Source: Candidatus Shapirobacteria bacterium | GTDB taxonomy: Bacteria; Patescibacteriota; Microgenomatia; UBA12405; BS750m-G30 | Direction: 5' to 3' | NCBI GenBank assembly: GCA_043817235.1 | Contig: JBDRHA010000006.1 | Coordinates: forward strand, 10,041-74,040 | Length of the DNA: 64,000 nt | Part shown: piece by piece, positions 436-62,290 of the stretch | Layout of the letters: every line of letters starts with the position of its first letter | Position numbering within the stretch: position 1 is the first letter of the stretch | Program-made: the position numbers and the translations under genes | The notes under the pieces: generated by a model | The model's input: only the letters and a program-made list of their open reading frames with translations | Database searches by the model: none | Told to the model about the DNA's origin: nothing

Positions 436-766
436 CAGCGCCATTACGAAGGGCGTGTCGTCCCCGCGAAAGCGGGATTTCTTGTCATCCTCGCGAAGGC
501 GGGGATCTATAAAAATATTAATATAGATTCCCGATCAAGTTGGGAATGACACTGTAAATAGTCATCCTGAGCGCAGCCCCGCGAGTCGCGGGGCGCAGCC
601 GAAGGATCTTTTAATTCCGAAGATCTCTCGGCTACGCTCGAGATGACATTGTTTCTGGCAATGGCATTTGGTTGACTTGTCTTTTTGCAGGGGTTTGATT
701 TATCAAGCCCAAAGTTTAATTTCCCCACACACCCGGTGTGGTTCGGGTCACACCGGGTGTGTGTAA
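436..766. repeat. MITE-like palindromic repeat cluster (TGTCAT... family), ending with the hairpin CACACCCGGTGTG-GTTCGGGT-CACACCGGGTGTGTG
   Basis: Direct reading. gtcatcctcgcgaaggcggggatc and gtcatcctgagcgcagccccgcgagtcgcggggcgcagccgaaggatc are units that recur throughout the window. The palindrome is ccccgcgagtcgcgggg. Confidence 0.8.
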
Positions 767-769
767 GCA

Positions 770-1642
770 TTATTCGAATTTAGCAGTTTGCTTTGCTCGT
801 CTGCTAGAATATTTACGCCTAATTAGCAAATAGATGATAAGAGCGATAGCAGATAATAGCAAGATAGTGATAAAGAACGGGTGGTTAATTAGCCACCATT
901 GCCAAAAAGAAAGAGCCGCAAACTGAATAGTATTGCTTTTGGGCGACGGATTTTCTCCTAGTTGAGTTTTGGTGGCGCCCACGTAAAGTTTCCAAACTGA
1001 GGGTTTATCTGTGGGTAAATTAAATGAGAAATCGCCGCGACTGTCGCTCTTTATTTCTAAATTTGGCCCTTCGCGAGCTAGTATCGGGCGACTGAAAAGA
1101 CGGCCCAGAATACTCCAAAAATATATTTTATTATCCTCAAAAAGAAAAACGCGCACTTCGGAACTGGGAACAGTGGCGCCTTCGGCACTGTTTTCTTCGC
1201 CTAGCCAATAAACTCCTTTTTCTATGCTGATAGTGGGCGGCAAAATAATGCCGGAAATACTGGTGTAAGTTTCGGCGGCCGGAGGAGAGAAGCAGACAGG
1301 CGCGGAAGAACGGTTTTGGGTATCAATGGCCGTAAAGCAAAAATCGCCGCTGTAAAGAGGCATGAGCGCGTTATAAAAGTGGAAAATACCTTGGTCGTCG
1401 GCAATAGTTTCTAAGTTTACGTTGCCCTGGGAGGAAGAGAACTCAACTCGGGCAAAAGCCGAAGTTAAGCCCTCAATGTCAAATAAACAGCCGCCGACGC
1501 GAGCCGATACCTTAGTGGTGAACTCCGGAGGGATTTTAATTCGGTTGACGGTTGTTTCCTGTTCTAAGATGACAGCCTTAACAGAGGAGCAGCAAAGGAG
1601 AAAGAAAGCAAAGAAAAAAATCATTGGGGCAGTTTTTTTCAT
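770..1642 (-). CDS. hypothetical secreted protein with N-terminal signal peptide and C-terminal transmembrane anchor
   Basis: N-terminus MKKTAPMIFFFAFFLLCCSSVKA is a signal peptide. The C-terminal hydrophobic stretch PFFITILLLSAIALIIYLLI is followed by RRKYSSRRAK. Last gene of the minus-strand operon 770-7800. Confidence 0.5.
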   Translation of the reverse strand: MKKTAPMIFFFAFFLLCCSSVKAVILEQETTVNRIKIPPEFTTKVSARVGGCLFDIEGLTSAFARVEFSSSQGNVNLETIADDQGIFHFYNALMPLYSGDFCFTAIDTQNRSSAPVCFSPPAAETYTSISGIILPPTISIEKGVYWLGEENSAEGATVPSSEVRVFLFEDNKIYFWSILGRLFSRPILAREGPNLEIKSDSRGDFSFNLPTDKPSVWKLYVGATKTQLGENPSPKSNTIQFAALSFWQWWLINHPFFITILLLSAIALIIYLLIRRKYSSRRAKQTAKFE

Positions 1643-1667
1643 GAAATCATGATAGCATGAACTTCAA

Positions 1668-2002
1668 TTGCGAGCGCTTTGTCATTCCGAGCGACCCCGC
1701 AGCTGCGGGAGAGTCGAGGAATCTTTGGAAACTAACCGACCTTTTTTCTGGCTCAAAAGATCTCTCGACTGCGCTCGAGATGACAGACTCACTATCAACC
1801 CCGCGCAGGCGGAATTTCTTGTCATCCCCGCGAAGGCCGAGAGCCCTGGTCATCCTGAGCGTAGCCGAAGGATCTTTCTTGTTTTGCTTAATTCCCCAAA
1901 AGATTCCTCGACTGCGCCCCGCGACTTGCGGGGCTGCGCTCGGAATGACACTGGTAGCGGGGGCTCGCGATGACATGTTTCGCACACCCCTGGTGTGTGT
2001 TT
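1668..2002. repeat. MITE-like palindromic repeat cluster, several nested or tandem units in both orientations
   Basis: Contains tgtcattccgagcgaccccgcagctgcgggagagtcgaggaatcttt, gtcatcctgagcgtagccgaaggatc and cgcgacttgcggggctgcgctcggaatgacac. Ends with the cacacccctggtgtgtg hairpin. Confidence 0.8.
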
Positions 2003-2057
2003 CTTTTTGGGCGTGATAAATCACGCCTCCTGCAAACTGCAGTTTCGAATTTGGAAA

Positions 2058-4745: not shown

Positions 4746-5471
4746 TTATTTAATTTTTTTGCCAAAGATATTATAGATCTCTATTTTCCCGGCGCTTTTA
4801 AAAAAATTTTCTCCTAAATTAGCGGCCTTAATCGTGAATTTTATTTCCTGACCTAAATCAGCCAATTTAGGTTGGCTGAAAAACTCGCTTATTTCTCCTT
4901 TGGCTTCCAGATCAGCGGTTTGGGAAACTGTAATTAAAATATTACTGCCGATCTGGCCGGCCAAGCCGGGCTGCGCCTGCTGCTCGGAGAAGCTCACTTC
5001 AGGGATTTGCTGAATAAAAAACGTCGCATAATAATCTTTTTGGGGAAGATCCAAAGGCGCAGTAATTTTCAAAACCAGCTGCTGGCTTTGGTTAGGCTCC
5101 AGAACAAAAGTATCGCCCAAATTTATATTAGCGTTATTAAGTTTAAACTCGGGAAGACCCGTAAAAATATCCGGTTCTTGATATGTAATTTGGCCCTCCT
5201 TCGCCAAGGCTTCGGAGGGTAGAAAAAACCTAATTTCAGTTTGTAAATAGAGCAGGGAAGTGCCTAGGTTTTTTACCTCATAAGCTTGGGTGATGCTTTT
5301 TCCCGGCTGCAAGACAACTTCCAAAAGAGGAGGGGAAAGGGAGAGGGAGAAGCTCTGACCAGCGGCGAGGCAAGCCCTGTTTCCCCTGGCCGCTATAAAG
5401 GATATAACGGTTATAACGATTATAATTTTTATAGCGGCCAACAGGAAAAAAAGGACCAAGAGAGCAAGAGA
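4746..5471 (-). CDS. surface protein B2 ectodomain, paralog of 2058-3008. It has no start codon of its own and is read through in frame from the upstream four-helix-bundle ORF.
   Basis: Signal-peptide-like LALLVLFFLLAAIKIIIVITVISFIAA, then LLEVVLQPGKSITQAYEVKNLG..., comparable to LIKLTAIPPRLEISANPGDVVVDQLKVRNEG of B1. The ORF caller fuses it to 5520-6299. Confidence 0.45.
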   Translation of the reverse strand, partial: SLALLVLFFLLAAIKIIIVITVISFIAARGNRACLAAGQSFSLSLSPPLLEVVLQPGKSITQAYEVKNLGTSLLYLQTEIRFFLPSEALAKEGQITYQEPDIFTGLPEFKLNNANINLGDTFVLEPNQSQQLVLKITAPLDLPQKDYYATFFIQQIPEVSFSEQQAQPGLAGQIGSNILITVSQTADLEAKGEISEFFSQPKLADLGQEIKFTIKAANLGENFFKSAGKIEIYNIFGKKIK

Positions 5472-5519
5472 GGCGGTGCCCGCCTCTCGGCGGTAATTTA
5501 GCCGCTTTTTGAGGAGGTT

Positions 5520-6020
5520 TTCTCGAAAACCCCCATTTTTAACAAAGTCCTCCTCCAGCCAGCGCAGTTTTTGGTCTAAAAGCTGGTTTGTCTGGTTAAT
5601 TAGGCAGATCATGGTGTTGGCTGCGGTTTCTCCGCTGCTCTGGTATTTTTTATAATCGTTATAATTTTTATAACGCTTATATACCAAAGCTCTAACAGCT
5701 TTGGCGCTCGGATCGTCTTTAGCCCAAATTTTCAGCTTTTTTTGACGCAAAAAGTCTTGGTAGTCGTTGAGAAGCTCTTCTAAAGAAGCGCGGGCAACGG
5801 CTAAGAGATTGAGTTTGAGCGCACTACTTTTTTGCAAGTATCCTTCGGCGATGTTCTGTTTGCCGGAGCGTGCGGCCTGAATAAGCTGATCGCTTTGCCG
5901 TGAGAAGTTCTTATAACTTTTATGACGGTTATAATTTTTATAAGGGCCAGAAAAACATTTATCTATGTATTTCTCGCAAAACTCCACCGTAAAATCGTGG
6001 ATTATTTCTGCCTGCTGGAA
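5520..6020 (-). CDS. four-helix-bundle protein (TIGR02436-like; the 23S rRNA intervening-sequence protein family). N-terminus unresolved; the upstream part of the ORF, to 6299, is MITE-derived.
   Basis: SDQLIQAARSGKQNIAEGYLQKSSALKLNLLAVARASLEELLNDYQDFL matches the family hallmark Q..R.a.Si..NIAEG...s.......l.iA.gSl.El (from memory). Tyr/Asn-rich 9-bp repeats lie at both ends. Confidence 0.5.
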
Positions 6021-6039
6021 AAATGGAAGAGAGCGATAC

Positions 6040-6250
6040 CCTCCTTCGCTAAAGCTACGGCGGGCAGGCCCTCCTTCGCGGGCAAGCCCTCCTCTGTCAT
6101 TGCGAGGAGTCCCGATGCTTCTTTTAGTCACCGGGACGACGTGGCAATCCCGTTTTGAGATTGCTTCAGTTTCGTTCGCAATGACATTTTTGTTAACCCC
6201 TGTTGCTGCGGTGTGGTTCGGGTCACGCCCGGTGTGTGATTTATCTTCTT
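6040..6250. repeat. MITE-like repeat cluster embedded in frame in the 5' part of the 4746-6299 ORF
   Basis: tgtcattgcgaggagtcccgatgc ... gtggcaatcccgtttt ... gttcgcaatgacattt, plus the ggtgtggttcgggtcacgcccggtgtgtg hairpin. Confidence 0.75.
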
Positions 6251-6298
6251 TCTGGTCCCTATAACGATTATAATGGTTATAACTGTTATATCCCGTCA

Positions 6299-7072
6299 TC
6301 AGTACCCCGGAACAGCAATATAAGTAATGGCATTTTCATAGTTTCCGGCGGCCTGGGATCCGCTGATATTAACTTTATAAGTAACTGTTGCGGTTGAGGA
6401 GGAAGTGACGGCATCAGAGCTCATCACGATTTGAGCACTTTCCGCGCCTTCTTGGTCAGCAAACTGGCGAAAAAAAGTAGAATCTTCAAAATCTTCCGGA
6501 ATATCATCGCCGCTGATTTTAAAGCCAAAGCCGTAAATAGAATCATTTATCCAGGGATCAGCGTCTGTTTCATCGCAAGAAAGTGTGTCACAAGTAGTAT
6601 CAACTATATCATTGGCTTGCTCAGAGCGGAGCGGATGGTTTTCAAAAGCCAGAACTTGGTACCCGCCGGCGCCACCAGCCGATACATTTAAAGTATTGGT
6701 GTCTGTCGAGGGGGTGCCGGGGACTAGTGAGCCAAAAGCAATGCTTAAATCGGAAATTGTAAAAGTAAAGGGAATAATAGAATGAATATACTGGAACCCG
6801 GCTCTCAGCCAATAGCCGTCGGACTGATAATCGCCGGGGGCAATCTGGCCAATAGTGTCGGTTAGGTTATAGCTGTCGGAGGATTTTTCTCCGCCGCCGA
6901 TGTTCACGTTTCCGCCCTGAATTTTATAGCTATCGGAATCCATATTGGCCGCGTTCACCCTCCGATTCGGAAGGCTCACCCTCCGGATTGGAGGGCTGGC
7001 TGCTATAAAAGATATAATCATTATAATAGTTATAATTTTTATAGCGGCCAACAAGAAATGAAGGCGGGTCAC
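6299..7072 (-). CDS. secreted protein A2, a shorter paralog of A1 (3038-4450)
   Basis: N-terminal MTRLHFLLAAIKIITIIMIISFIAA is encoded by the 57-bp repeat at 7002-7058. The C-terminal domain aligns with the A1 C-terminus. Confidence 0.5.
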   Translation of the reverse strand: MTRLHFLLAAIKIITIIMIISFIAASPPIRRVSLPNRRVNAANMDSDSYKIQGGNVNIGGGEKSSDSYNLTDTIGQIAPGDYQSDGYWLRAGFQYIHSIIPFTFTISDLSIAFGSLVPGTPSTDTNTLNVSAGGAGGYQVLAFENHPLRSEQANDIVDTTCDTLSCDETDADPWINDSIYGFGFKISGDDIPEDFEDSTFFRQFADQEGAESAQIVMSSDAVTSSSTATVTYKVNISGSQAAGNYENAITYIAVPGY

Positions 7073-7918: not shown

Positions 7919-8530
7919 ATGGCTGAGTGGTCAAAAGAAAGCATAATTAAAGCAATTTATCACTATTCTCCTCAAGCTGTAATAATTCTGGGAATACTTT
8001 TGGCGGCGGCCGGCGCAGCTTACGTTTTTCTTCCTTCCTCGTCTTCCTCCCAAGTAGAAATAATTAAAGCTGACGAGCAAGAGGAAACCGGAGTGCTAAT
8101 TGCAGATATCTCCGGAGCCGTTATTCAGCCCGGCGTTTACACTCTTTCGGCCGGCTCGCGCTTAAATGATCTTCTGATTGCCGCGGGCGGTTTAAGCATT
8201 GAAGCAGATCGGGACTGGGTGGAGAAAAATATTAATCGAGCCGCACCATTAATAGATGGAGCAAAAATTTATATTCCTAAAATAGGGGAGGAGGTGGGTC
8301 CGCCAGCTGGCGGAGTGGCGGGGCAGAGCACTTCGGGGCTAATAAACTTAAATCAAGCAGACTTAGCTTTATTAGAAACTTTGCCGGGGATTGGGCCGGC
8401 CACGGCTCAAAAAATTTTGGATTATAGAAAAGAAATCGGCTCTTTTTCTGCTCCCGAAGAATTAATGAGCGTTTCCGGAATTGGGCCAAAGACCTATGAG
8501 CAATTAAAAGACCTGATTTCCGTCTACTAG
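7919..8530 (+). CDS. comEA: competence protein ComEA (SLBB domain plus tandem helix-hairpin-helix DNA-binding domain)
   Basis: LINLNQADLALLETLPGIGPATAQKILDYRKEIGSFSAPEELMSVSGIGPKTYEQL is the classic ComEA HhH pair. There is an N-terminal TM. Confidence 0.85.
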   Translation: MAEWSKESIIKAIYHYSPQAVIILGILLAAAGAAYVFLPSSSSSQVEIIKADEQEETGVLIADISGAVIQPGVYTLSAGSRLNDLLIAAGGLSIEADRDWVEKNINRAAPLIDGAKIYIPKIGEEVGPPAGGVAGQSTSGLINLNQADLALLETLPGIGPATAQKILDYRKEIGSFSAPEELMSVSGIGPKTYEQLKDLISVY

Positions 8531-9699
8531 TGAGAAAAGCTTTTCTTTACTTTTTTATTTTTCTTCTTGCTTTTCGTATTTTTGGCTATTATTTTTCTTT
8601 AGCTTCCGGCTATCAGGCGGGGGATCAGGTGCTAATTCATGCTTGCCTGGATACTCAGCCGAAAATAACAAGCCGCAATCAGATTTTTTCTTTAAGCAAA
8701 CTAAGAATAATAACGTCGCAAAATGAGCAGATAAATTTTGGCGATTGTTTGCAAATTAAAGGCAAAGTGGGAGAAAAGGGCTTTTTGGTTGATCCGGAAA
8801 TTGAGTTTTGGGAGCCAGGTCTAGCAAAAGACTGGCTTAACGGCCTAAAGAAGTTCGGGTTTTGGCTTCAGCAAAAAGCCAAAAGCCATTACAATCATTA
8901 TTTGCCTGAGCCTGTTTCTTCTTTGCTTTCCGGCATTGTTTTGGGAGCCAAATCTAATTTGCCCGTTAATTTTTACCAGAAACTGCAAAATACGGGGACA
9001 TTGCATATCGTGGTTGCCAGCGGTTATAACCTTACTGTTATAAGCCAATATCCGGCTGATTTTTTAGCCTGGTTTACGGGCCGCAAGGCCGCTTTAGTCC
9101 TTGGTGGGGCATTGGTCTGGCTTTATGTATTGGTTGCTGGTTTTCAGCCGCCTATAATTAGAGCGGCATTAATCATTAGCTTAGTTTATCTAGCCCGGTA
9201 TTTAGGTAGGAAATTCGATGTTTGGCGTGGGTTTTGGTTAGTAATAGGCTTGATGCTTATTTTTTCGCCCAGCCTTATAGCAAGTATTTCTTTTCAGTTG
9301 AGCGTTTCGGCGATGTTTGGCTTGCTGTATTTTGAAGATAAGTTCCAAAGATTGAGAAATATTAGGTTCGTTGGCAAAGCGTTAGCCGAATCGCTAAGCG
9401 CTCAATTAATGGTTTTGCCGATTATAGGCTTTCATTTTGGAACTGTTTCCTGGGCTTCGCCATTAATAAATATGCTGGTATTGCCTTTTGTGCCGCTTTT
9501 GATGACATTGGGTCTAATATCTTTGGGAGCAAGACCTTTTTTATATCTTGTTTATCCGGCGGGTTATTTATTAGAGAAAATAATTAATTTTTTTGGCCGA
9601 TTCTCTTTTTTGCAAATTTCTTTTTCCTTTTCTTGGTTTTTGGTAATAATTTATTATTTGATTTTGTTTTATATTTTTGGATGGAGAAAAAAAGACTAG
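8530..9699 (+). CDS. comEC: ComEC/Rec2 DNA-uptake channel, N-terminal membrane part (DUF4131 plus competence domain)
   Basis: Polytopic membrane protein directly after comEA. Continues into the MBL-domain ORF in another frame. Confidence 0.75.
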   Translation: MRKAFLYFFIFLLAFRIFGYYFSLASGYQAGDQVLIHACLDTQPKITSRNQIFSLSKLRIITSQNEQINFGDCLQIKGKVGEKGFLVDPEIEFWEPGLAKDWLNGLKKFGFWLQQKAKSHYNHYLPEPVSSLLSGIVLGAKSNLPVNFYQKLQNTGTLHIVVASGYNLTVISQYPADFLAWFTGRKAALVLGGALVWLYVLVAGFQPPIIRAALIISLVYLARYLGRKFDVWRGFWLVIGLMLIFSPSLIASISFQLSVSAMFGLLYFEDKFQRLRNIRFVGKALAESLSAQLMVLPIIGFHFGTVSWASPLINMLVLPFVPLLMTLGLISLGARPFLYLVYPAGYLLEKIINFFGRFSFLQISFSFSWFLVIIYYLILFYIFGWRKKD

Positions 9700-10571
9700 T
9701 TGTTTTTTTACTGCTGGGGTTAATTATTTTATTTTGCCTCCAAAGGCCGGATAAGAATTTTCATGTTGTTTTTTGTGATGTGGGAGAAGGGGACGCGATT
9801 TTATTGATCCAAAAGAATAATCAGATTTTAGTAGACGGTGGACCGGGTTCTTCTGTTTTGAAGTGTTTGAGTAATAATGTCCCTTTTTGGGATCGGAAGC
9901 TAGAAGCAGTTCTCTTAACCCATCCGGACGCTGATCATTATTCCGGCTTAATTGAAGTTTTAAAAAGATACAAAATAGAAAATTTTTTTGCTCCGCCTTT
10001 AGGTCAAAAAAACGATCTGTCTTTTAAAAAACTTATTTCTTTGTTAATTGATCAAAAAATTACTCCACAAGCTTTAACTCAAGGAGATAAAATTAGAGTT
10101 GGTTTGATTGATTTTGATATTTTTTGGCCGACTAAAAATAAACTAAAAGAACTAGAGACATTTCAAGATATCTCTAGTTTTCAAAACGGCTTTTGGTTAA
10201 TAAGTGAGAGCTTGGTTAACAATAATGAGTTTTCTTTGGTTGCTCGAGCTACTTTCGACCAATTTGATCTATTGTTAACCGGTGACTTGCCAAGTAACTT
10301 AAGCCAAACTTTAGCCTGGCAAAATAAACTGCCCCAAGTAGAGATATTAAAGGCCAGCCATCATGGATCGGGAGCAGATAACCCGGATGAGCTCTATGAT
10401 AAGACTAACCCCAAGCTGGTGGCTATCAGTGTGGGCGAAAATAATTATGGTCACCCAGGTAAAGAGCTTTTGGAAAAACTCAAAAAACTGAATATTCCCG
10501 CCAAAAGAACCGATGAAAAAGGGGACATTGAGATTATTTCGGACGGAAAGTCTTGGTGGGTGGCCGACTAG
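9633..10571 (+). CDS. comEC: ComEC C-terminal metallo-beta-lactamase domain, either frameshifted relative to 8530-9699 or a genuinely separate polypeptide
   Basis: HVVFCDVGEGDAILLIQ...VDGGPG...LLTHPDADHYSGL...LKASHHGS are MBL motifs typical of the ComEC C-terminus. 67-nt overlap with the preceding ORF in a different frame. Confidence 0.75.
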   Translation: MVFGNNLLFDFVLYFWMEKKRLVVFLLLGLIILFCLQRPDKNFHVVFCDVGEGDAILLIQKNNQILVDGGPGSSVLKCLSNNVPFWDRKLEAVLLTHPDADHYSGLIEVLKRYKIENFFAPPLGQKNDLSFKKLISLLIDQKITPQALTQGDKIRVGLIDFDIFWPTKNKLKELETFQDISSFQNGFWLISESLVNNNEFSLVARATFDQFDLLLTGDLPSNLSQTLAWQNKLPQVEILKASHHGSGADNPDELYDKTNPKLVAISVGENNYGHPGKELLEKLKKLNIPAKRTDEKGDIEIISDGKSWWVAD

Positions 10572-10852
10572 CAAAAAATCACACACTCGGTGTGAATTCG
10601 AACCACACCGGGCGTGTGGGAAGCGGGGTGTCGTCGCGAGAGGTGTTCAGTGTCATTGCGGGGCTCGCAATGACAGTCCAAATAGTCATCCCGAGCGCAG
10701 TCGAGGGATCTTTTGAACCAGAAAAAAGGTCGGTTAGTTTCCAAAGATTCCTCGGCTACGCCCCGCAGTTGCGGGGCTGCGCTCGGAATGACACTGAAAA
10801 CAGATTCCCGATCAGGTTGAGAATGACAAAGGAGGTCAGAGTGAGGCTGTAA
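10572..10852. repeat. MITE-like palindromic repeat cluster
   Basis: cacactcggtgtgaattcgaaccacaccgggcgtgtg hairpin, gtcattgcggggctcgcaatgaca, gtcatcccgagcgcagtcgagggatctttt and cgccccgcagttgcggggctgcgctcggaatgacac. Confidence 0.8.
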
Positions 10853-10905: not shown

Positions 10906-11166
10906 ATGCTATATTCAATCATGGTTTATCTTTGGGATTATGATTTAAAAAAGCTAAAGAAAAACAAGAGCGAGCGGGCGAAAATTTTTCTTTTGGAAAG
11001 AATGATAAATTATGGCCCTGGCAAAGAAAAAATAGACTTAAAAGAAGTGAAAAAATATTGGGATAAACTCAATTTGTTTAAACTGCAAAGACGTTTATTT
11101 GAACTATTAATATGGGGAAAATATCAATCCTCACCCCGGACCAAAAAGCCTTTCTGGCGGGGTTGA
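10906..11166 (+). CDS. hypothetical small protein upstream of, and overlapping, the AbiEii-like gene. Possible cognate antitoxin or a fragment.
   Basis: Position only; no recognisable motif. Confidence 0.2.
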   Translation: MLYSIMVYLWDYDLKKLKKNKSERAKIFLLERMINYGPGKEKIDLKEVKKYWDKLNLFKLQRRLFELLIWGKYQSSPRTKKPFWRG

Positions 11167-11768
11167 AGAAAAATCATTATTTTTGCGATAATTTTTACTT
11201 TACTGGAGGCACTGCTTTGGCTGAGTATTATCTTAGCCATCGTTTATCAGAGGATTTAGACTTTTTTTCCGACAAAAGATTTGACAATCATAGGGTGTTG
11301 GGTGGAATAAGAGACTTAAGCAAACTTCTTAATTTTAGCTTTAATTCCCATTTTGCGGAGCCTGCTTACAGTTTTTTTCTCAAGTTTTCTTCTCATTCTC
11401 CAACGAAAATTGACTTTGGTTTTTTCCCTTATCCTAGGTTGGGAAAGAGATTGAAGAAGCAGGGAATTTTGATTGATAGTCAGCTGGATATTGCTGTTAA
11501 TAAATTAATGACTATCTCCCAAAGAACGGATATCAAAGATTTTGTTGATCTTTACTTTTTGCTTGATAAATATTCTTTTTGGGATTTGTTTAGGGGAGTG
11601 GAGGCAAAATTTAAGCAAGAACTTAACCCTTTAATTATTGCTTCTGATTTCTTAAAAATTGAAGAGTTTAATTTCTTGCCGAAAATGATTAGATCTCTCG
11701 AGTTAGAAGATCTGAAAATTTTTTATCGCAAATTAGCAAAAAGATTGGGGAAAAAGAGTTTGCAATAG
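11112..11768 (+). CDS. AbiEii/DUF1814-family nucleotidyltransferase (type IV TA / abortive-infection toxin family)
   Basis: FTGGTALAEYYLSHRLSEDLDFF matches the GGTAL...R.S.DiD nucleotidyltransferase core of the AbiEii family (from memory). Confidence 0.55.
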   Translation: MGKISILTPDQKAFLAGLKKNHYFCDNFYFTGGTALAEYYLSHRLSEDLDFFSDKRFDNHRVLGGIRDLSKLLNFSFNSHFAEPAYSFFLKFSSHSPTKIDFGFFPYPRLGKRLKKQGILIDSQLDIAVNKLMTISQRTDIKDFVDLYFLLDKYSFWDLFRGVEAKFKQELNPLIIASDFLKIEEFNFLPKMIRSLELEDLKIFYRKLAKRLGKKSLQ

Positions 11769-12051: not shown

Positions 12052-12345
12052 AGTGTCATTGTGAAGGGCGTTGCCATCCCCGCGAAGGCGGGGTTCTCGT
12101 TATTCCCGCGCAGGCCGAGAGTCTCTGTCATCCCTGCGCAGGCGGGGATCTATGAAATAATCATATAGATTCCCGATCAGGTCGGGAATGACAAAGAGGA
12201 TGTCATCCCGAGCGCAGTCGAGGGATCTTTTGAACCAGAAAAAAGGTCGGTTAGTTTCCAAAGATTCCTCGGCTGCGCCCCGCGATTCGCGGGGCTGCGC
12301 TCGGAATGACACTGAAAACAGATTCCCAATCAGGTTGAGAACGAT
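12052..12345. repeat. MITE-like palindromic repeat cluster
   Basis: gccatccccgcgaaggcggggttc, gtcatccctgcgcaggcggggatc, gtcatcccgagcgcagtcgagggatctttt and cgccccgcgattcgcggggctgcgctcggaatgacac. Confidence 0.8.
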
Positions 12346-12376
12346 ATTATTGGCGTAAATTTGCTATTATTTTCCT

Positions 12377-13935: not shown

Positions 13936-16641
13936 ATGACTAAACGAGATTTTAAAAAGCAGGAAAATAAGTGGCAAGTTGTTTGGGAAAAACAGGGCTG
14001 GTATCGGGCTAAGGATTTTGAAAAAAGGAAAAAGAAAAAATATGTTTTAGTTGAGTTTCCTTATCCTTCCGGCGAGGGTTTGCATATCGGCCATGCCTTT
14101 TCTATGACTGGCGCAGATATTTACGCTCGCTTTTGCCGGATGAGTGGTTTTAATGTTCTTTTTCCCATGGGTTGGGATGCTTTTGGCTTGCCTACGGAAA
14201 ATTACGCCATTAAAACCGGCATTTCGCCCCAAAAAGCGACCAAAAAAAACACTGATAATTTTCGGCGGCAGATGAAAAAGCTGGCTTTTTCTTTTGACTG
14301 GAGCCGGGAAATCAATACCACTGATCCGGATTATTATCGCTGGACGCAGTGGATTTTTATTCAGCTTTTTAAAAAAGGTTTGGCCTATAAAGAAGAAAAG
14401 CCAATAAATTGGTGTCCTTCCTGTCGAATTGGGCTGGCCAACGAGGAAGTGATTGACAGCAAGTGCGAGCGATGTGGGGCACAAACTCTTAAAAAGAATA
14501 TTAACCAGTGGATTGTTAAAATCACTGATTATGCTGAGCGCTTAATTTCCGGGCTGGAAGAAACTACTTTTGTTTCTAAAGTAAAAGCGGCTCAAATTAA
14601 CTGGATTGGCAGGAGTGAGGGGGCAAGGGTGAAGTTTAAACTTTCTCAAGACTCGGTCTCAATTTTGCGGTGCTCATCCCGCAGTGGCGGGACTCCTAAA
14701 ATTGAAACCTCGTCAGCTTTCTTGGAGGTTTTTACTACCCGTCCTGATACTTTATGGGGAGCGACTTTTATGGTGCTTTCTCCCGAGCACCGCCTTGTGG
14801 CGGAAATTCTAAATTCTAAATCCGAAGCTCCTGCCTCGCCGGCAGGCGGGCCAAATAAATCAAAAATTTCAAATTCTAATATTGAAGAAATTAAGAAATA
14901 TGTTAATCGGGCGAGGAGAAAGACAGATTTAGAAAGAGCCGAGCTGGAAAAAGAGAAAACCGGGGTCTTTACCGGGATTTATGCCCTAAATCCAGCGAAT
15001 AACGAAAAAATTCCGGTTTGGGTATCGGATTTTGTTTTAAGCACTTATGGTACCGGGGCGATTATGGCCGTGCCCGCTCATGACCAGCGGGATTTTGCTT
15101 TTGCTAAAAAATATAATCTGCCGATTATTCCGGTCATCAAGCCGCCGAAAAAATGGGACTTTGGTAAAGAGCCTTATGTGGATGTGGATCGGGGGGCAAT
15201 GATTAATTCCGGCCCGATTAATGGATTGGCACCGAAAGAGGCGATTAAAAAGACTTTAAATATACTAGAAAAAAAAGAAGCAGGGAAAAAAGCAATTGAT
15301 TATCACTTGCGCGATTGGATTTTTTCCCGCCAGCATTATTGGGGAGAGCCAATACCCATGACTTATTGCGCCAGATGCGGTTGGCAGCCGGTTAAAGAAT
15401 CGGATTTGCCGGTGGAATTGCCAAAGGTAAAAAAATATGAGCCGACTAAAACCGGAGAATCGCCTTTGGCCAATATTAGGGATTGGGTTAATGTTACGTG
15501 CCCAGTTTGTGGAGGTAAAGCTGAGCGGGAAACCGACACCATGCCTAATTGGGCCGGTTCAGATTGGTACTACCTCGCCTATTGCTTCGCAGGCAAACTC
15601 GGAAATTACAAATTACAAATTCCAAAGACCAAACAAATTACAAATTCCAATAACCAAAAACTAAAAAGTTTGGATACTTGTAATTTGGAGCTTGGAAATT
15701 CTCAAAATATTTTTGAGTCTTCAAAAGATGTTTTGAGCCATTGGCTGCCGGTGGATGTTTATGTGGGCGGAGACGAACATAATACTTTGCACCTGCTTTA
15801 TTCCCGGTTTATTTACCAGTTTTTGCGGGATCTGGGAGTAGTGCCCAAATCTATTCCCGAGCCTTATTATTGGCGGCTTTCCCATGGAGTAATTTTAGGG
15901 GCAGACGGGAGTCGTATGAGCAAATCGCGGGGCAACATAGTGGAGCCGGACAAGCTTTGGGAAAAATACGGCGTGGATGCTTTGCGCACTTATATGATGT
16001 TCATGGGCCCGTTTGAGGGAACGATTGTTTGGAATGATAATGCTTTAAAAGGGGTGGTGCGTTTTTTGGATAGATTTTATGATTTCGTAATAACTCCCGA
16101 GGTAGGCCTTGATTCCTCGAGAGCTGCTTCGAGTCCCGGAACTCCCGAGGTAGGCCTTGATTCCTCGGGAGTTGAGGTTGTTGCAATAAATAAGCTTGTT
16201 AATAAAGTTTCTCGTGACTTGTCTAGTTTTCAGTTTAATACGGCAATAGCGGCGATGATGGAATGGCTTAATCAGGCTGAAAAAGAGGCTTGGCAATTAA
16301 AAGACGAAGAAAAAAGAATTTTAATTCAGTTGATTGCACCGTTTGCTCCATATACGTCTGAAGATCTTTGGGAAAATTTGGGAGGAAAAGGGAGTGTGCA
16401 TTGGAGCAAATGGCCAGAAGTGGAAAAAAAGGCTCTTCGAGAAGAAGAGGTGGTTATTGCTGTTCAAGTTAATGGGAAGTTGAGAGCAACAATACAGCTT
16501 AAAACTAAAAGCTTAAAGCTTAAAGCCAGAATAGAAGAAAAAGCAAAGAAAGAAGAAAAAGTCGCAAAATACTTAAAAGGCAAGAAAATAATCAAAACTA
16601 TTTACATCCCGGGAAGATTAATTAACTTTGTGGTAAAGTAA
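13936..16641 (+). CDS. leuS: leucyl-tRNA synthetase
   Basis: HIGH motif PYPSGEGLHIGHAF; KMSKS motif SRMSKSRGN; TTRPDT editing-domain motif. Carries low-complexity and palindromic in-frame insertions (see findings). Confidence 0.95.
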   Translation: MTKRDFKKQENKWQVVWEKQGWYRAKDFEKRKKKKYVLVEFPYPSGEGLHIGHAFSMTGADIYARFCRMSGFNVLFPMGWDAFGLPTENYAIKTGISPQKATKKNTDNFRRQMKKLAFSFDWSREINTTDPDYYRWTQWIFIQLFKKGLAYKEEKPINWCPSCRIGLANEEVIDSKCERCGAQTLKKNINQWIVKITDYAERLISGLEETTFVSKVKAAQINWIGRSEGARVKFKLSQDSVSILRCSSRSGGTPKIETSSAFLEVFTTRPDTLWGATFMVLSPEHRLVAEILNSKSEAPASPAGGPNKSKISNSNIEEIKKYVNRARRKTDLERAELEKEKTGVFTGIYALNPANNEKIPVWVSDFVLSTYGTGAIMAVPAHDQRDFAFAKKYNLPIIPVIKPPKKWDFGKEPYVDVDRGAMINSGPINGLAPKEAIKKTLNILEKKEAGKKAIDYHLRDWIFSRQHYWGEPIPMTYCARCGWQPVKESDLPVELPKVKKYEPTKTGESPLANIRDWVNVTCPVCGGKAERETDTMPNWAGSDWYYLAYCFAGKLGNYKLQIPKTKQITNSNNQKLKSLDTCNLELGNSQNIFESSKDVLSHWLPVDVYVGGDEHNTLHLLYSRFIYQFLRDLGVVPKSIPEPYYWRLSHGVILGADGSRMSKSRGNIVEPDKLWEKYGVDALRTYMMFMGPFEGTIVWNDNALKGVVRFLDRFYDFVITPEVGLDSSRAASSPGTPEVGLDSSGVEVVAINKLVNKVSRDLSSFQFNTAIAAMMEWLNQAEKEAWQLKDEEKRILIQLIAPFAPYTSEDLWENLGGKGSVHWSKWPEVEKKALREEEVVIAVQVNGKLRATIQLKTKSLKLKARIEEKAKKEEKVAKYLKGKKIIKTIYIPGRLINFVVK

Positions 16642-16778: not shown

Positions 16779-16801
16779 TTGTCATTGCGTTCGCAATGAC
16801 A
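16779..16801. repeat. minimal MITE terminus palindrome TGTCATTGCG-TT-CGCAATGACA
   Basis: Perfect 10-bp inverted repeat. These are the same termini as the larger elements, with nothing between them. Confidence 0.8.
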
Positions 16802-16911: not shown

Positions 16912-17178
16912 ATGAATTATGTAGCAACCAATATCCGTTTTCCGGAAGAGGACTGGAAGTATTTTAAAATCAAGGCCTTGGAGGCTAGGAAAAGTTTGGC
17001 TGCTTGGATCAGAGATTCTTTAAGAGAAAAAGAGGGCTTAACTAAAAAAACTGTCAAAAGCCAAGAGAAAGATTCTTTTTGGGAATTTCCTGAACTTTTG
17101 AAAAAGAATAAAATTAGAGATAAGGCGCCCAAAAATCTTTCTTTAAATCTTGATCAATATCTTTATGGCCAAGAATAA
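16912..17178 (+). CDS. vapB: ribbon-helix-helix (CopG-like) antitoxin, partner of the downstream PIN toxin
   Basis: NIRFPEEDWKYFKIKALEARKSLAAWIRDSL follows the beta-strand-then-helix pattern of RHH antitoxins. Overlaps the PIN gene start. Confidence 0.55.
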   Translation: MNYVATNIRFPEEDWKYFKIKALEARKSLAAWIRDSLREKEGLTKKTVKSQEKDSFWEFPELLKKNKIRDKAPKNLSLNLDQYLYGQE

Positions 17179-17581
17179 GGTATATATTGACACTTCCGCT
17201 TTAGTGGCTTACTTAAGGCCAGCTGATAGCTGTCACAAGAAAGCCGTTAAGGTTTGGGAAAGATTAAGAAAAGACCAGCCAAATCTAATTCTCACTAATT
17301 ATATTCTGGCTGAATTTTTCACTGTAATTAGACAAAGAATTGGAATAAAGGCGGCGGTAAAAGCAGGCGAGATAATAAAAAGGTCTTCGTATTTTAAGAT
17401 AATTTGGGCAGATCAAGTATTAGATGAGGAAGCTTGGAAAATTTTTAAAAAAAACACCCAAAAAAATATTAGTTTTGTTGACTGTGTTTCTATAGCGGTA
17501 ATCGAGAAGTTGAAAATTAATGCCGTTTTTGGTTTTGATAAACATCTTGTTAAGGCCGGAGTTAAATTGATAGAAAACTAA
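17150..17581 (+). CDS. vapC: PIN-domain ribonuclease toxin VapC
   Basis: KVYIDTSALVAYL...LTNYILAEFFTV...FVDCVSIAVIEKL...FGFDKHL carries the PIN acidic residues in canonical positions. Confidence 0.75.
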   Translation: MINIFMAKNKVYIDTSALVAYLRPADSCHKKAVKVWERLRKDQPNLILTNYILAEFFTVIRQRIGIKAAVKAGEIIKRSSYFKIIWADQVLDEEAWKIFKKNTQKNISFVDCVSIAVIEKLKINAVFGFDKHLVKAGVKLIEN

Positions 17582-17596: not shown

Positions 17597-17645
17597 AGAG
17601 ATTGCCACGCCCCCCGATGTAGCGTCGGGGGACTCGCAATGACAC
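17597..17645. repeat. MITE fragment (ttgccacgccccccgatgtagcgtcgggggactcgcaatgaca)
   Basis: Same right end as the elements at 20084-20222 and 53583-53662. Confidence 0.7.
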
Positions 17646-43307: not shown

Positions 43308-43560
43308 TAGTCATTCCGAGCTTCGAGACCAGTGTCATTGCGAGTCCCGATGGTTCTGTTAGCCATCGGGGCGCGGCAATCCCGCTGGGATTACGGGTTA
43401 CGCACGGGATCGTTCCGCTACGCTCAGGATGGCGATTTAAACTGTCATTCCGAGCGCAGCCCCGCAGTAGCGGGGCGCAGTCGAGGAATCTTTGGCAATT
43501 AAGCGAAGTATTTCTCTGATTTACGAAAGACCCTTCGGCTACGCTCAGGATGACGATCTC
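43308..43560. repeat. MITE-like repeat cluster
   Basis: gtcattccgagcttcgagacc, tgtcattgcgagtcccgatggttc...ggcgcggcaatcccgctgggatta, tgtcattccgagcgcagccccgcagtagcggggcgcagtcgaggaatcttt and ccttcggctacgctcaggatgacga. Confidence 0.8.
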
Positions 43561-45347: not shown

Positions 45348-45600
45348 GAAATTCCCAGAGTCATTCCGAGCGAAGTCCCGAGTACTCGGGACGAAGTCGA
45401 GGAATCTTTAGGAGTAAAAAGATCCTTCGGCTGCGCCCCGTGAATCGCGGGGCTGCGCTCAGGATGACAGGAAACAATGTCATTGCGAGCCCCGCAGCTG
45501 CGGGGGAAGTAATCCCAGGCGGAATATGCAATCCCGTTGGATAGATTGCTTCGTTAGTCACTAGCGTTTCTTCCTCGCAATGACAAAGGAGGTTGAGATT
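45348..45600. repeat. MITE-like repeat cluster including a full 113-bp element with perfect 12-bp TIRs (45476-45590)
   Basis: tgtcattgcgagccccgcagctgcggggg ... ttcctcgcaatgaca; also gtcattccgagcgaagtcccgagtactcgggacgaagtcgaggaatcttt. Confidence 0.85.
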
Positions 45601-47754: not shown

Positions 47755-47778
47755 TTTTAAAATCCTAATTAATTACCT

Positions 47779-47878
47779 TGTCATTCCCGATTCTGATCGG
47801 GAATTCTCTGTCATCCTGAGCGTAGCCGAAGGATCTATTGCTTCCAAAGATTCCTCGGTTGCACTCGGAATGACCTTT
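47779..47878. repeat. MITE-like repeats inside the rplJ leader
   Basis: tgtcattcccgattctgatcgggaattc, tgtcatcctgagcgtagccgaaggatctat and ctcggttgcactcggaatgac. Confidence 0.75.
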
Positions 47879-47892
47879 TAGTAACGTGCACA

Positions 47893-47925
47893 AAAAAAGC
47901 CTCGAATCCGAGGCTGCTTTAAGCT
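47893..47925 (-). terminator. Rho-independent terminator/attenuator hairpin in the rplJ leader (minus strand reads GCCTCGGATTCGAGGC followed by TTTTTTT)
   Basis: Perfect 6-bp stem GCCTCG/CGAGGC with a 4-nt loop and a 7-T run on the minus strand. Lies between the inferred rplJ promoter and the rplJ start. Confidence 0.55.
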
Positions 47926-48014
47926 TTAAGTTTTTGGCTTTAAGCTAATTACCGCCTCGGTAAGATTTTTAAGTCCCGCAGCTGCGGGAGACTTACTGTC
48001 TTGGGCTAGACTTA

Positions 48015-48043
48015 TATTACCAGATTATCCTTTCTTGTCAAGC
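48015..48043 (-). promoter_or_regulatory. candidate sigma-70 promoter for rplJL: TTGACA, 16-nt spacer, TAATAT on the minus strand
   Basis: Reverse complement of 48038-48043 is TTGACA; reverse complement of 48015-48020 is TAATAT. Confidence 0.45.
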
Positions 48044-53457: not shown

Positions 53458-53662
53458 CCTTGTCATTCCGAGCGCAGCCCCGCCGTTGCGGGGCGTAGTC
53501 GAGGAATCTTTTGGGGAATTAACCAAACACCGCTTGGACAAGAAAGATCCCTCGACTGCGCTCGGGATGACCATTTGAACTGTCATTGCGTGGCAATCTT
53601 GCTTTTCCGACGGGATCGCTGCGCCCCCGACGTGACGTCGGGGGACTCGCGATGACATTTAA
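53458..53662. repeat. MITE-like repeat cluster
   Basis: tgtcattccgagcgcagccccgccgttgcggggcgtagtcgaggaatctttt, ccctcgactgcgctcgggatgac and the full element tgtcattgcgtggcaatcttgc...gggactcgcgatgaca. Confidence 0.8.
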
Positions 53663-56215: not shown

Positions 56216-56217
56216 AA

Positions 56218-59926: not shown

Positions 59927-60599
59927 AAAGGCCGAGAATTTTTTTCTTGAACTCCGATCCGTATTCCTTATAAAAGTGATAGGCGGAAGGAAGAAGAGAG
60001 ACAAATATTACTGCCAAAACAAGATAGTGAAAGTATTTATCCGCTCCGGGGAAATATGTGCCAATTAAATAGCCCCCAAAACCCATTGTCAAAACCCATA
60101 AGATTCCGCCGATAACATTAAAAGAGACAAAGCGATCATAGTGCATCTGAGCTACTCCGGCCATAATCGGCACAAAGGTGCGAATAATCGGCATAAATCG
60201 GGCAATGACTATTGCTTTTCCGCCATGAAGTCTATAAAAATCTTCTGCTTTTTCTAAGTGCTTTTTTTTAAAAATTAAAGATTCTTTTTTTTCAAAAAGG
60301 CGGCGGCCCCATTTGTGGCCAATCCAGTAGCCGGCTGTATCGCCGCCAATAGCGCCGATAATTGATAAAATTACCAAGTAATAAATATTTAAATATCCAC
60401 GGGAAGCAAGCAAGCCAGCGGTTAAAAGTAGACTGTCACCCGGGAAAAAGAAACCAAAAAGTAATCCGGATTCGGCAAAAACAATACCAAATATTCCGAC
60501 GTAACCTACAGTTCTGATTAAGCCCTCAATGTCCCAGTGCATGCTTTGAATTGTAATCAAGTTAATAAAATATGTCAATAAATAGCAAGACGAGGTCAT
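59910..60599 (-). CDS. DedA/SNARE-associated (TVP38/TMEM64) family membrane protein
   Basis: FFPGDSLLLTAGLLASRGYLN...GAIGGDTAGYWIGHKWGRRLF is the DedA signature. Confidence 0.8.
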   Translation of the reverse strand: MTSSCYLLTYFINLITIQSMHWDIEGLIRTVGYVGIFGIVFAESGLLFGFFFPGDSLLLTAGLLASRGYLNIYYLVILSIIGAIGGDTAGYWIGHKWGRRLFEKKESLIFKKKHLEKAEDFYRLHGGKAIVIARFMPIIRTFVPIMAGVAQMHYDRFVSFNVIGGILWVLTMGFGGYLIGTYFPGADKYFHYLVLAVIFVSLLPSAYHFYKEYGSEFKKKILGLFTRPE

Positions 60600-60670
60600 T
60601 GCGAGGCAGGAATGAAATGACTAACGAAGTAATCTCCCAACGGGGTTGCTTCACTTGCGTTCGCAATGAC
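60595..60670. repeat. single 76-bp MITE with 10-bp perfect TIRs GTCATTGCGA...TCGCAATGAC
   Basis: gtcattgcgaggcaggaatgaaatgactaacgaagtaatctcccaacggggttgcttcacttgcgttcgcaatgac. Confidence 0.85.
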
Positions 60671-60903
60671 AAAGCGGTTGTCTTTTGGCCTTAATCTGTT
60701 AAAATAGCAAACAATGGCAAAAAAGGGGAATAGGCTAATTCTTGGTTTAGTTTGTTCGGTGTGCAATAGTTTTAATTACATTACCGAGCGTAACAAAATT
60801 AATACCACCGAAAAGCTGAAAATAAGCAAGTACTGCAGAAAGTGCAAAAAGCGGACCGAGCACAAAGAAACGCAGAAATTAAAATAGCTTTAAGTTAACT
60901 TGC

Positions 60904-60977
60904 GGGCCCGTGGCTCAGTTGGCTAGAGCGCCTCGATGGCATCGAGGAGGCCGCCGGTTCAAGTCCGGCCGGGTCCA
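60904..60977 (+). tRNA. tRNA-Ala (anticodon GGC) with G3:U70 identity pair
   Basis: GGGCCCG-TG-GCTC-AGTTGGCTA-GAGC-G-CCTCG-ATGGCAT-CGAGG-AGGCC-GCCGG-TTCAAGT-CCGGC-CGGGTCC-A. Confidence 0.8.
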
Positions 60978-62081
60978 CTAATAATATTTTTTTGCCCAAG
61001 TTTGAACTTCTCTAAATTTATTTTCCTCTATGCTTTTTCTAATCCAGGCCATTAAGCGCATGTAAAAAGTTAGATTATGAATAGTTAATAAACGAGAGGC
61101 GAGCGGCTCTTTGACTCGCAGTAAGTGATGCAAATAAGAGCGGGTATAGGTTTGGCAGGTCAAACAGGGGCAATTTTTATCCAGGGAAGCTTGATCTAAT
61201 CTGTATTGACTCTTTTTTAGATTTAGTTTGCCAGAAAAAGTATAAATAGTGCCATGGCGGGCGTTGCGAGTGGGAATTACGCAGTCAAATAAATCCCAGC
61301 CCATGCTGACGGCTTGAACAATTTGTTTTGGCGGCCCGCCGCCCATTAAATAGCGCAAGCGATTGTTAGGAATAAGTGAAGCAGTGTAAGCTAGAATCTC
61401 GTTATTTTCCGGCGGGCCGCCAAACCCATATCCCGGAAAACAAGAAATTGCTTCCAGCTCTTGAAAATTAATTTTCCGCAGTTTTTTGTTATTTGCTCCC
61501 TGAATAATAGACAGCAGCATTTTATTTTTGCTATTTTTTGATTTTTGAAAAGCTTCTAAGCTTTCTTTAGCCCATTTAGTTGTTAGCTTTACTGACAATT
61601 TGTTGTCTTTTTTGCTGCCTTTGGGAGCAATGGGGTAATCTAGACACATTAAAATATCTGCGCCCAAATTAAGCTGGATTTTAATAGATTCGGCTGGCGT
61701 AAAAAAGTGTTTGGCTCCGGTCAGATGGTCGCGAAATTCCACGCCCATATTTCCGACTCGGCCCATCTTTTTTTGGTAAACCAAAGAGAAAACCTGCCAG
61801 CCGCCGCTGTCGGTAAGCAATGGCCTTGGCCAACCCATAAACTTTTTTAAGCCGCCGGCTTTTTTAATAACTTCAAATCCTGGCCGTAGCCAGAGGTGGT
61901 AGCTATTGCCTAAAATCATTTGCAAGCAGATTTCTTTTAAATCTAAAGCGGATAAGTGCTTAACCGCGCCGTAAGTGGCATCAGGAATAAAGCAGGGAGT
62001 AAAAACTTTTCCCGAAGGGGTATTAATAACCCCAGTTCTGGCTTGGGTTTTGCTGTCGCTTTTCAGAACAGAAAATTTCAT
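60978..62081 (-). CDS. tgt: queuine tRNA-ribosyltransferase
   Basis: MKFSVLKSDSKTQARTGVINTPSGKVFTPCFIPDATYGAVKHL; Zn site CPCLTCQTYTRSYLHHL. The stop abuts the tRNA-Ala 3' end. Confidence 0.95.
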   Translation of the reverse strand: MKFSVLKSDSKTQARTGVINTPSGKVFTPCFIPDATYGAVKHLSALDLKEICLQMILGNSYHLWLRPGFEVIKKAGGLKKFMGWPRPLLTDSGGWQVFSLVYQKKMGRVGNMGVEFRDHLTGAKHFFTPAESIKIQLNLGADILMCLDYPIAPKGSKKDNKLSVKLTTKWAKESLEAFQKSKNSKNKMLLSIIQGANNKKLRKINFQELEAISCFPGYGFGGPPENNEILAYTASLIPNNRLRYLMGGGPPKQIVQAVSMGWDLFDCVIPTRNARHGTIYTFSGKLNLKKSQYRLDQASLDKNCPCLTCQTYTRSYLHHLLRVKEPLASRLLTIHNLTFYMRLMAWIRKSIEENKFREVQTWAKKYY

Positions 62082-62102
62082 GCTCCTATTTTAGCAATAC
62101 TT

Positions 62103-62290
62103 GCCCAACTAGTCATTCCGAGCGAGTCAAGATAGAAAGATCCTTCGGCTATGCTCAGGATGACTATTTAATCTGTCATTCCGAGCGAAGCCCCGCGATT
62201 CGCGGGGCGCAGTCGAGGAATCTTCGGAAAAATCCTTCGATCCCGCCGGTGCGGGGCTCGCAATGACAATAGGTGCGGTATTATTGAGTT
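62103..62290. repeat. MITE-like repeat cluster
   Basis: gtcattccgagcgagtcaagatagaaagatccttcggctatgctcaggatgac, tgtcattccgagcgaagccccgcgattcgcggggcgcagtcgaggaatctt and gatcccgccggtgcggggctcgcaatgaca. Confidence 0.8.

Follow-up and report, generated by a model that had tools for sequence, protein, structure and literature searches.

Probable CGTC-REP/Ssn-class hairpin repeats and a candidate nuclease cassette in 64 kb of a Candidatus Shapirobacteria genome

Described tagged-hairpin systems and the repeats of the window

Two described systems come closest to the repeats reported here, which are short tagged hairpins spread through a 64,000-nucleotide stretch of a Candidatus Shapirobacteria genome (contig JBDRHA010000006.1, positions 10,041 to 74,040; hereafter the window, numbered from its first letter). 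The first is a superfamily of repetitive extragenic palindromic (REP) sequences with a CGTC tag, often TGTC, described by Di Nocera, De Gregorio, and Rocco in 2013 (BMC Genomics 14:522; PMC3733652). CGTC REPs have A-T pairs at stem positions 1-2 and a short tail, form inverted dimers, and include intragenic copies. The superfamily takes in Neisseria dRS3 and the Rickettsia conorii elements RPE-4 and RPE-6, and its members were noted to be without a dedicated transposase (PMC3733652). The second is the Ssn system, in which the Neisseria sequence NTS, CGTCATTCCCGCGMAVGCGGGAATCYRG, contains dRS3 (Chenal et al. 2025, Nat Commun 16:2388; PMC11893778). NTS is bound and cut, as single-stranded DNA (ssDNA) only, by SsnA, a 94-amino-acid single-domain GIY-YIG nuclease. 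Three bases upstream of the NTS palindrome govern cleavage, the C after it governs binding, and the loop is dispensable; residues Y6, Y17, and E64 of SsnA were mutated, and changing the second catalytic Tyr to Ala abolishes cleavage. Homologues of ssn occur in many phyla, flanked by "Ssn-related motifs" (SRM) (PMC11893778).

We consider it likely that the window repeats are hairpins of the CGTC/TGTC-REP class, that is, Ssn-related motifs, and that pairs of them lacking a gene are the non-autonomous form of a unit-nuclease-unit cassette. A preliminary description had presented the family as undescribed, but the class is known from the two papers above. What is new is a long-loop form of the CGTC-REP/Ssn system, in Patescibacteria and greatly expanded; we did not find this form, or its abundance in a Patescibacteria genome, in the searchable literature. 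All results on the window come from these 64 kb of one genome.

The likeness to CGTC REPs extends to the CGTC or TGTC tag, the A-T stem pairs, and the formation of inverted dimers, and a strong preference for C after the stem recalls the first base of their 3' tail. Spread among related species is uneven in both, and copies lie inside genes, including those for tRNA synthetases. The proportions differ: stems measure 8-9 bp and loops 4-5 nt in CGTC REPs, whereas most window units have a 5-bp closing stem around a structured interior of 12-40 nt. Clusters are the rule in the window but rare among the CGTC REPs of PMC3733652, and Patescibacteria are not among the five phyla listed there. With the Ssn/SRM system, the window units share an oriented hairpin with GTC upstream, C downstream, and a variable loop; the motif is very widespread in both cases, and a small single-domain GIY-YIG gene has repeats on both sides. 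However, the window gene (gene 1 below) is bracketed by tag-outward single units and an Azospirillum gene by pairs, gene 1 has a Cys at the second catalytic Tyr, and the window system is known from sequence alone.

Three further systems resemble the window repeats in parts. REPs and bacterial interspersed mosaic elements (BIMEs) that are served by REP-associated tyrosine transposases (RAYT; the REPIN and REPtron arrangements) also combine short tagged palindromes, inverted pairs and mosaics, and an enzyme gene flanked by its own repeats, and they too are without target-site duplication and have a presumed single-stranded intermediate. Their tag is GTAG and their enzyme an HUH/Y1 transposase, whereas the window has a GTC tag and a GIY-YIG nuclease; no Y1/RAYT transposase was matched in the 40 window open reading frames (ORFs) scanned with Pfam. 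Rickettsia palindromic elements likewise place in-frame palindromes in essential genes of a small genome and add peptide segments, but the CGTC design is confined to RPE-4 and RPE-6 among them, the palindrome of RPE-1 being longer and unrelated, and the phylum is another, and we liken the two by design. Neisseria intergenic mosaic elements (NIMEs) are mosaics of dRS3-type hairpins with variable segments between them. Their sequences are different, and the window, unlike the NIMEs, also has intragenic copies.

Design, pairing, and folding of the units

Each unit begins with an unpaired (T)GTC, continues with a stem arm of AT and three variable bases, an interior, and the exact complement of the arm, and ends with a C. 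An A-T pair and then a T-A pair start the stem, and all units open with AT and close with AT. GTC was found in 53 of 53 curated units, preceded by T in 40 and by C in three. The base directly 3' of the stem was C in 48 cases, A in 2, G in 14, and T in 4. This C is followed by TTT or CCG, not by the CA of the CCA consensus tail in CGTC REPs, and many units then run into a T-rich tail. The commonest unit is 26 nt long, GTC-ATYSY-GAGCGNAGYCGA-RSRAT-C, with the 12-nt GAGCGNAGYCGA loop as its interior; in some units the interior also holds a nested G+C hairpin. Only a handful have stems of 8-9 bp and loops of 4-5 nt (484-507, 526-550, 12127-12150, 12168-12192, and 47783-47804), and these short, long-stem units look like the Neisseria element, for example TGTCATCCTCGCGAAGGCGGGGATC at 483-507 and 12127-12150.

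This single design replaces the three kinds of element that had been distinguished in the preliminary description, all of which are variants or pairings of one tagged hairpin. Its type (iii) is the 26-nt unit, and its type (ii) is the same unit carrying a G+C hairpin (YCCCGC-N4-GCGGGR) inside the loop. Type (i) is an inverted unit pair with GTCAT tags outward, in which the supposed terminal inverted repeats (TIRs) are the 5' tags and stem starts of both units. The individual examples given there, at 45476-45590 and 60595-60670, are as described, as is the minimal 22-bp palindrome TGTCATTGCG-TT-CGCAATGACA at 16780-16801, which is just two tags and stem starts.

The units are far more numerous than expected by chance. 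The terminal motif TGTCATYSYGAG occurred 32 times in the window, against 0.00 expected from shuffled sequence. A strict finder returned 48 units, compared with 1.15 ± 1.06 when the dinucleotides were shuffled 100 times; it accepted only GTC followed by a perfectly paired stem that was 5 bp or longer and opened with AT, then a loop, a complementary arm ending in AT, and a C. When all 64 NNNAT heads were put through this hairpin rule, GTCAT ranked first (48 units versus 30 for the runner-up). A permissive search with hand curation raised the number to 53 units, of which 28 are on the plus strand and 25 on the minus strand, a density of about 0.8 per kb. They form 19 clusters, in agreement with the earlier count of at least 19. 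The curated clusters cover about 2.6 kb in total, less than the 3.5-4 kb first estimated, a figure that is plausible once degenerate copies are included. Repeat finding on the window returned many multi-copy families.

The stem triplet varies among TCC, CCT, TGC, CCC, CGC, and CTC, and the closing triplet changes with it. For a non-circular test of this co-variation, 54 heads were picked only as GTCATNNNGAR, and a closure of the form NNNATC was sought within 75 nt. The head's own exact closure followed by C was found for 40 of the 54, while foreign closures appeared at 6.1%.

Neighboring units alternate in orientation, and this alternation produces two kinds of junction. In tag-outward pairs (n = 21), the tails face each other across spacers of 7-38 nt that belong to few sequence families, and all five clean two-unit clusters (6096, 10685, 40691, 47810, and 60595) are of this kind. 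Where pairs abut with their tags inward, the two GTCAT are separated by 9-10 nt in eight of nine junctions. Whole multi-unit blocks have been duplicated with their junctions included (repeat families D4 and D7). At 15 element boundaries, we looked for target-site duplications and found no direct repeats that reached 3 bp.

These arrangements bear on the possibility that the repeats are classical MITEs (miniature transposable elements with inverted repeats), deletion derivatives of an insertion sequence moved by a conventional transposase, DDE-type or other, that recognizes TGTCATTGCGAG TIRs. Inverted ends of 10-12 bp do bound many pairs, the copies are abundant and non-coding, and the inspected portion of the genome is 64 kb only. 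However, what would be the TIR of such an element is the tag and stem start of a self-contained hairpin that also occurs singly and whose stem co-varies internally. The missing target-site duplications also argue against a classical MITE, and the only protein gene bracketed by tag-outward ends, in five genomes, encodes a GIY-YIG nuclease. The earlier claim that the window has no transposase stands for classical enzymes in the 40 Pfam-scanned ORFs, the remaining long ORFs, which were left unscanned, reading as housekeeping genes in translation, but it overlooked two GIY-YIG nuclease genes. Given this evidence, we regard a classical MITE origin as very improbable.

A different possibility is that the units act in RNA, as terminators, mRNA stabilizers, or processing sites, and are kept for that function without being mobile. 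Nearest-neighbor folding gave z scores of -4.0 to -6.8 for unit pairs, which form long stable hairpins, and for a composite of units in the isoleucyl-tRNA synthetase (IleRS) gene, and of -2.7 to -3.8 for short 8-bp-stem units and units with a nested G+C hairpin. T-rich tails after many units, the argument that many REPs are transcribed (Di Nocera et al., PMC3733652), and the presence of three units in the 5' untranslated region of rplJ would also suit an RNA function. Yet the two strands are used alike, and units occupy every kind of context, including the IleRS gene and five divergent promoter regions. Of the 23 gaps between genes that measure 150 nt or more, 16 contain units, in line with the first impression that they fill most such gaps, with convergent, co-directional, and divergent contexts alike. 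A terminator scan found 30 sites against 24.8 expected, which is not an enrichment, and almost none of these coincided with units. The closest relatives are without units, hence there is no positional conservation, and SsnA does not bind RNA (PMC11893778). Selection for an RNA-level role is therefore an improbable explanation of the family as a whole, while individual copies may affect transcripts, such as the three that lie between the L10 leader and rplJ.

The GIY-YIG cassette, lineage-specific spread, and possible mobilization

One of the two GIY-YIG genes in the window, gene 1 (40354-40644, plus strand, 96 amino acids), is enclosed by repeat units. It was found with a profile built from homologues of the other gene and matches PF01541 (E = 2.7e-13) as its sole domain. 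The left bracket (40181-40308) consists of units 40181-40206(+), 40203-40251(-), and 40262-40308(+), the last of which ends 45 nt upstream of the gene. The right bracket (40655-40780) starts 10 nt downstream with a degenerate unit, 40655-40681(-), and continues with a gene-less pair, 40691-40716(+)/40755-40780(-). The left bracket also reaches into a neighboring gene: in the peptidyl-tRNA hydrolase ORF (39670-40320), the Pfam domain stops at residue 168 of 216, and the last ~46 codons and the stop are supplied by units of the bracket.

The same frame recurs at four distinct loci with homologues of gene 1 at 63-74% identity (L210, L211/212, L213/214, and L215). A minus-strand unit lies 8-14 nt 3' of the gene in all five loci, the window included, and a plus-strand unit lies 32-55 nt before the start in four of them; in L215 it overlaps the annotated start. 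In L210, the two bracketing units are identical inverted copies. The neighbors of the cassette are unrelated from locus to locus, namely, rpsP/KH, a DUF763 gene, a PMT glycosyltransferase gene, and a Wzy_C gene. The near-identical contigs L211 and L212 were compared for insertion polymorphism, and their differences adjoin masked runs of N. Within the window, one gene-less pair begins much like the cassette (repeat family D1): its left end, at 43423-43503, matches the leftmost 81 nt of the cassette with 85% identity. Gene-less tag-outward pairs look like the cassette minus its gene, and since the cassette and the pairs have the tag-outward geometry in common, we read the pairs as putative non-autonomous derivatives of it.

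Several features mark gene 1 as a candidate cognate nuclease of the Ssn-like type. Its product is 46% identical over its full length to a protein of Azospirillum lipoferum, whose gene splits sufB from sufC and has canonical CGTCATCCCCGCGAAGGCGGGGATCCAG SRM pairs on both sides; this SRM-flanked homologue, taken from a plasmid collection, served as the proxy for SsnA in our comparisons. The spacing of Tyr8, position 19, and Glu66 in gene 1 equals that of Y6, Y17, and E64 in SsnA, and position 19 is Tyr in 104 of 120 gene 1 homologues and Cys in three. No sequence relative of gene 1 was found among solved structures. The rate of GIY-YIG genes near single units was 0.14 per 100 kb in 120 metagenome loci versus 0.21 in 80 control loci, but with hundreds of units served by just one or two genes, such co-occurrence rates carry no information.

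The other gene, gene 2 (62409-62666, plus strand, 85 amino acids), was found by a six-frame motif scan and has PF01541 as its sole domain (E = 2.5e-15). Cluster 19 (62113-62268) lies upstream of it. CCCGC-N4-GCGGG hairpins flank gene 2, as they do its orthologues, and are almost absent from the rest of those loci. The gene is placed between a pseudo-tRNA-Trp (62328-62398, plus strand) and the real tRNA-Trp (62665-62738), with its stop codon overlapping the first bases of the latter. In the pseudo-tRNA, the anticodon arm lacks its 3' side and the T arm its 5' side, with the hairpin CCCCGCAGCTGCGGGG in their place. Two other Shapirobacteria have the same layout (L002, 9950-10430, and L004, 9908-10440), with proteins of ~66% identity and tandem partial tRNA-Trp copies with the TCCCGCNGCTGCGGGA hairpin downstream. 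The arrangement suggests that tRNA-Trp was duplicated, or received an insertion, long ago.

The IleRS ORF (19287-22370, minus strand, 1027 amino acids) contains two composites of three units each (+,+,-), bounded by TGTCAT...ATGACA, that keep the frame open; the one at 20081-20214 adds about 40 amino acids and the one at 21451-21580 about 48. We aligned 17 homologues from the genomes of other species and the five nearest database proteins, and both sites were empty in them except for unrelated inserts in L068 (site 1), the sole exception among the 17, and in P0121 (site 2). At 1027 amino acids, the window protein exceeds all of the best 120 database matches, which range from 903 to 999. The site 2 insert of P0121, the closest relative (L089, 12000-12200), is a low-complexity segment encoding SNLGNSDLFRNSKLEIRNS from AATTCGAAATTAGAAATT-type DNA, and the loop at this site is apparently both prone to unrelated insertions and tolerant of them.

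The distribution of units among relatives is patchy. The closest relatives carry no units in 10-22 kb around their IleRS or GIY-YIG genes; unit-free loci include L089 (62% IleRS identity; 17 kb), L009-L020 except L012, and the loci of gene 2 orthologues. L012, another Patescibacteria locus, has six units of the window's types. L023, from the metagenome-assembled genome of Shapirobacteria S014, has 17 units with 7-bp stems, ATCCTGA/TCAGGAT and ATGCTGA/TCAGCAT, which we read from their sequence as an independent expansion with a different specificity; its units contain variable nested hairpins and form inverted heterodimers. More broadly, the 26-nt pattern occurred in at least 120 metagenome contigs with G+C contents from 32% to 71%. 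Positional conservation across lineages, which would have spoken against mobility, is absent where the closest relatives are concerned. The lineage-specific distribution, the IleRS inserts, and the cassette frame together support units that behave like non-autonomous mobile DNA, as first proposed, though not as the classical MITEs of that proposal.

We suggest, tentatively and with less than even confidence, that the small GIY-YIG (Ssn-type) nuclease is the mobilizing enzyme, with the cassette as an autonomous element of about 420 bp and the gene-less pairs as its MITE-like derivatives. The mechanism that we infer, by analogy with SsnA biochemistry, would begin with the nuclease binding the folded hairpin only in ssDNA, which could be exposed at replication forks, during repair, or on uptake through ComEA/ComEC (encoded at 7919-10571). 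The nuclease would then nick a few nucleotides 5' of the GTC tag, and in a tag-outward pair, nicks would fall just outside each end on opposite strands and would delimit the element. The element would be copied or moved via a single-stranded intermediate without target duplication, as in REP/RAYT and IS200/IS605, and new copies would tend to insert at the nick next to a resident unit. Insertion at such a site would explain facing tags that are 9-10 nt apart, a spacing about double the ~3-4 nt offset that can be deduced from how the oligonucleotides in PMC11893778 were designed, and insertion of ssDNA there would explain the absence of target-site duplications.

The units may instead be domesticated marks for ssDNA restriction, that is, targets of a nuclease that modulates the recombination of incoming ssDNA but does not copy them, with spread by recombination, gene conversion, or slippage. 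This is the sole function demonstrated for an Ssn/NTS pair (PMC11893778), ssDNA uptake is likely given that ComEA and ComEC are encoded in the window, and blocks of several units have been duplicated together with their junctions. It leaves unexplained the precise in-frame IleRS insertions, the unit-gene-unit cassette in unrelated contexts, and the fixed spacing of facing tags. We rate this account of the repeats as possible but on balance doubtful. The ssDNA-mark and nuclease-copying readings are not mutually exclusive, and with ComEA and ComEC both encoded in the window, it is equally possible that the nuclease restricts or trims ssDNA on its way into the cell, as in Neisseria, which would be compatible with a copying role.

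Several observations weigh against assigning the repeats to the CGTC-REP/Ssn class with a GIY-YIG cassette as their source. The published SRM pattern matched only one of the 53 units (483-510; 0.15 expected), and a search of the window for the Neisseria NTS at up to three mismatches gave no matches. Recognition by the nuclease, if it occurs, must tolerate 5-bp stems and long loops. The 26-nt units, the commonest form, had folding z scores of about 0 with no stable hairpin predicted, by a model that gives no score to sheared G-A pairs or GNA triloops. By eye, the 12-nt loop could presumably accommodate sheared G-A pairs in tandem, a G-C pair, and a mini-hairpin of the form C-GNA-G. Codon 19 of gene 1 (TGC, 40408-40410) encodes Cys in place of the second catalytic Tyr; judging from this codon, the protein may be capable of binding without cutting, or the Cys may be an assembly error. 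The solved structures nearest to gene 2 are of the UPF0213 group (PDB 1zg2 and 1ywl), and the gene 2 orthologues in relatives have no GTCAT units nearby. Finally, the binding, cleavage, and copying roles proposed here are extrapolated from Neisseria and Wolbachia SsnA, Ssn is not known to mobilize its repeats even in Neisseria, and a transposase could be encoded elsewhere, with 64 kb of the genome seen.

The window adds a Patescibacteria example, at very high density, to the tagged-REP/Ssn system, and it indicates that the published SRM pattern misses a widespread long-loop form of the motif. If the nuclease does mobilize the units, the enzymes that drive the expansion of miniature repeats in bacteria would include a third class besides DDE and HUH/Y1, and this would answer the question left in 2013 of what moves CGTC REPs. 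The cassette contexts, shared ends, in-frame inserts, and fixed tag spacing make Ssn-driven spread of CGTC REPs a testable proposition. For annotation, the units account for many small ORFs that are spurious, and for unusual peptides inserted in or appended to genes, in genomes of the candidate phyla radiation.

Remaining clusters and neighboring features

The remaining clusters vary in size and setting. Cluster 1 (462-647) lies between convergent genes and contains units 484-507(+), 526-550(-), 561-608(+), and 622-647(-), together with an NTS-like hairpin at 462-477; the window also holds three dRS3-like ATTCCC-N9/10-GGGAAT sites. Cluster 2 (1681-1975) has units 1681-1723(+), 1759-1784(-), 1849-1874(+), and 1902-1949(-) plus degenerate copies, and cluster 5 (12055-12346) has units 12127-12150(+), 12168-12192(-), 12202-12227(+), and 12263-12310(-). 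A single minus-strand unit with a nested G+C hairpin in its loop occupies 17600-17643. Cluster 10 (32894-33054; units -,+,-) sits in the divergent promoter region upstream of mreB, and cluster 11 (36850-37064) strings together five units in the order + - + - +. Cluster 14 (43310-43554) includes the gene-less pair 43444-43554, the one whose left end resembles that of the cassette. Two clusters have the order + - + -, cluster 15 (45360-45585), which holds the type (i) example of the preliminary description, and cluster 17 (53462-53657), which lies upstream of the arginyl-tRNA synthetase gene. Cluster 18 (60595-60670) is an isolated tag-outward pair.

An accessory hairpin, CACACCSGGTGTG, adjoins the clusters, and its reported presence was borne out by 10 matches against 0.33 expected. 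The form CACACCCGGTGTG-N8-CACACCGGGTGTG is found at 727-765, with more copies at 1985-1997, 6224-6236, 10582-10616, and 32954-32987. In one unit (32929-32995), the accessory hairpin forms the loop.

The rplJ region (47765-48023, minus strand) combines a known RNA element with repeat units. An Rfam scan of the window returned tRNAs and an L10 leader only, the latter at 47.4 bits (RF00557). Three units at 47765-47874 separate this leader from the rplJ start codon, and a TCCCGCAGCTGCGGGA hairpin lies within the leader region at 47974-47989. Autoregulation of rplJ could be affected by the interposed units.

Other genes of the window contain palindromes or repeats of different kinds. ORF 4746-6299, which has a tag-outward pair in its 5' part (cluster 3, 6096-6185), encodes a weak match to the 23S rRNA intervening-sequence-protein (four-helix-bundle) domain. 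Direct repeats of TATAACNNTTATAACNNTTATAATTTTTATA at 5403, 5642, 5912, and 7013 flank that domain and encode YNGYNDYN-like peptides, and the region (4746-7072) is possibly another inserted element that fuses ORFs. The leucyl-tRNA synthetase gene (13936-16641) contains a lone in-frame TCCCGCAGTGGCGGGA hairpin at 14677-14692, preceded by CTCA rather than GTCA. Near 14830 it has a CCTGCCTCGCCGGCAGGCGGG palindrome, and it also encodes peptide segments that are duplicated or of low complexity (PEVGLDSS twice; LELGNSQ).

The ComEA-ComEC competence operon (7919-10571) is divided between two ORFs, one for the Competence domain and one for a metallo-beta-lactamase. It adjoins cluster 4 (10652-10828), which lies downstream of ComEC and comprises units 10685-10710(+) and 10746-10792(-) with degenerate copies. 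The first 20 kb of the window also encode an AbiEii toxin and two PIN-domain toxins (11112-11768, 17150-17581, and 18921-19307).

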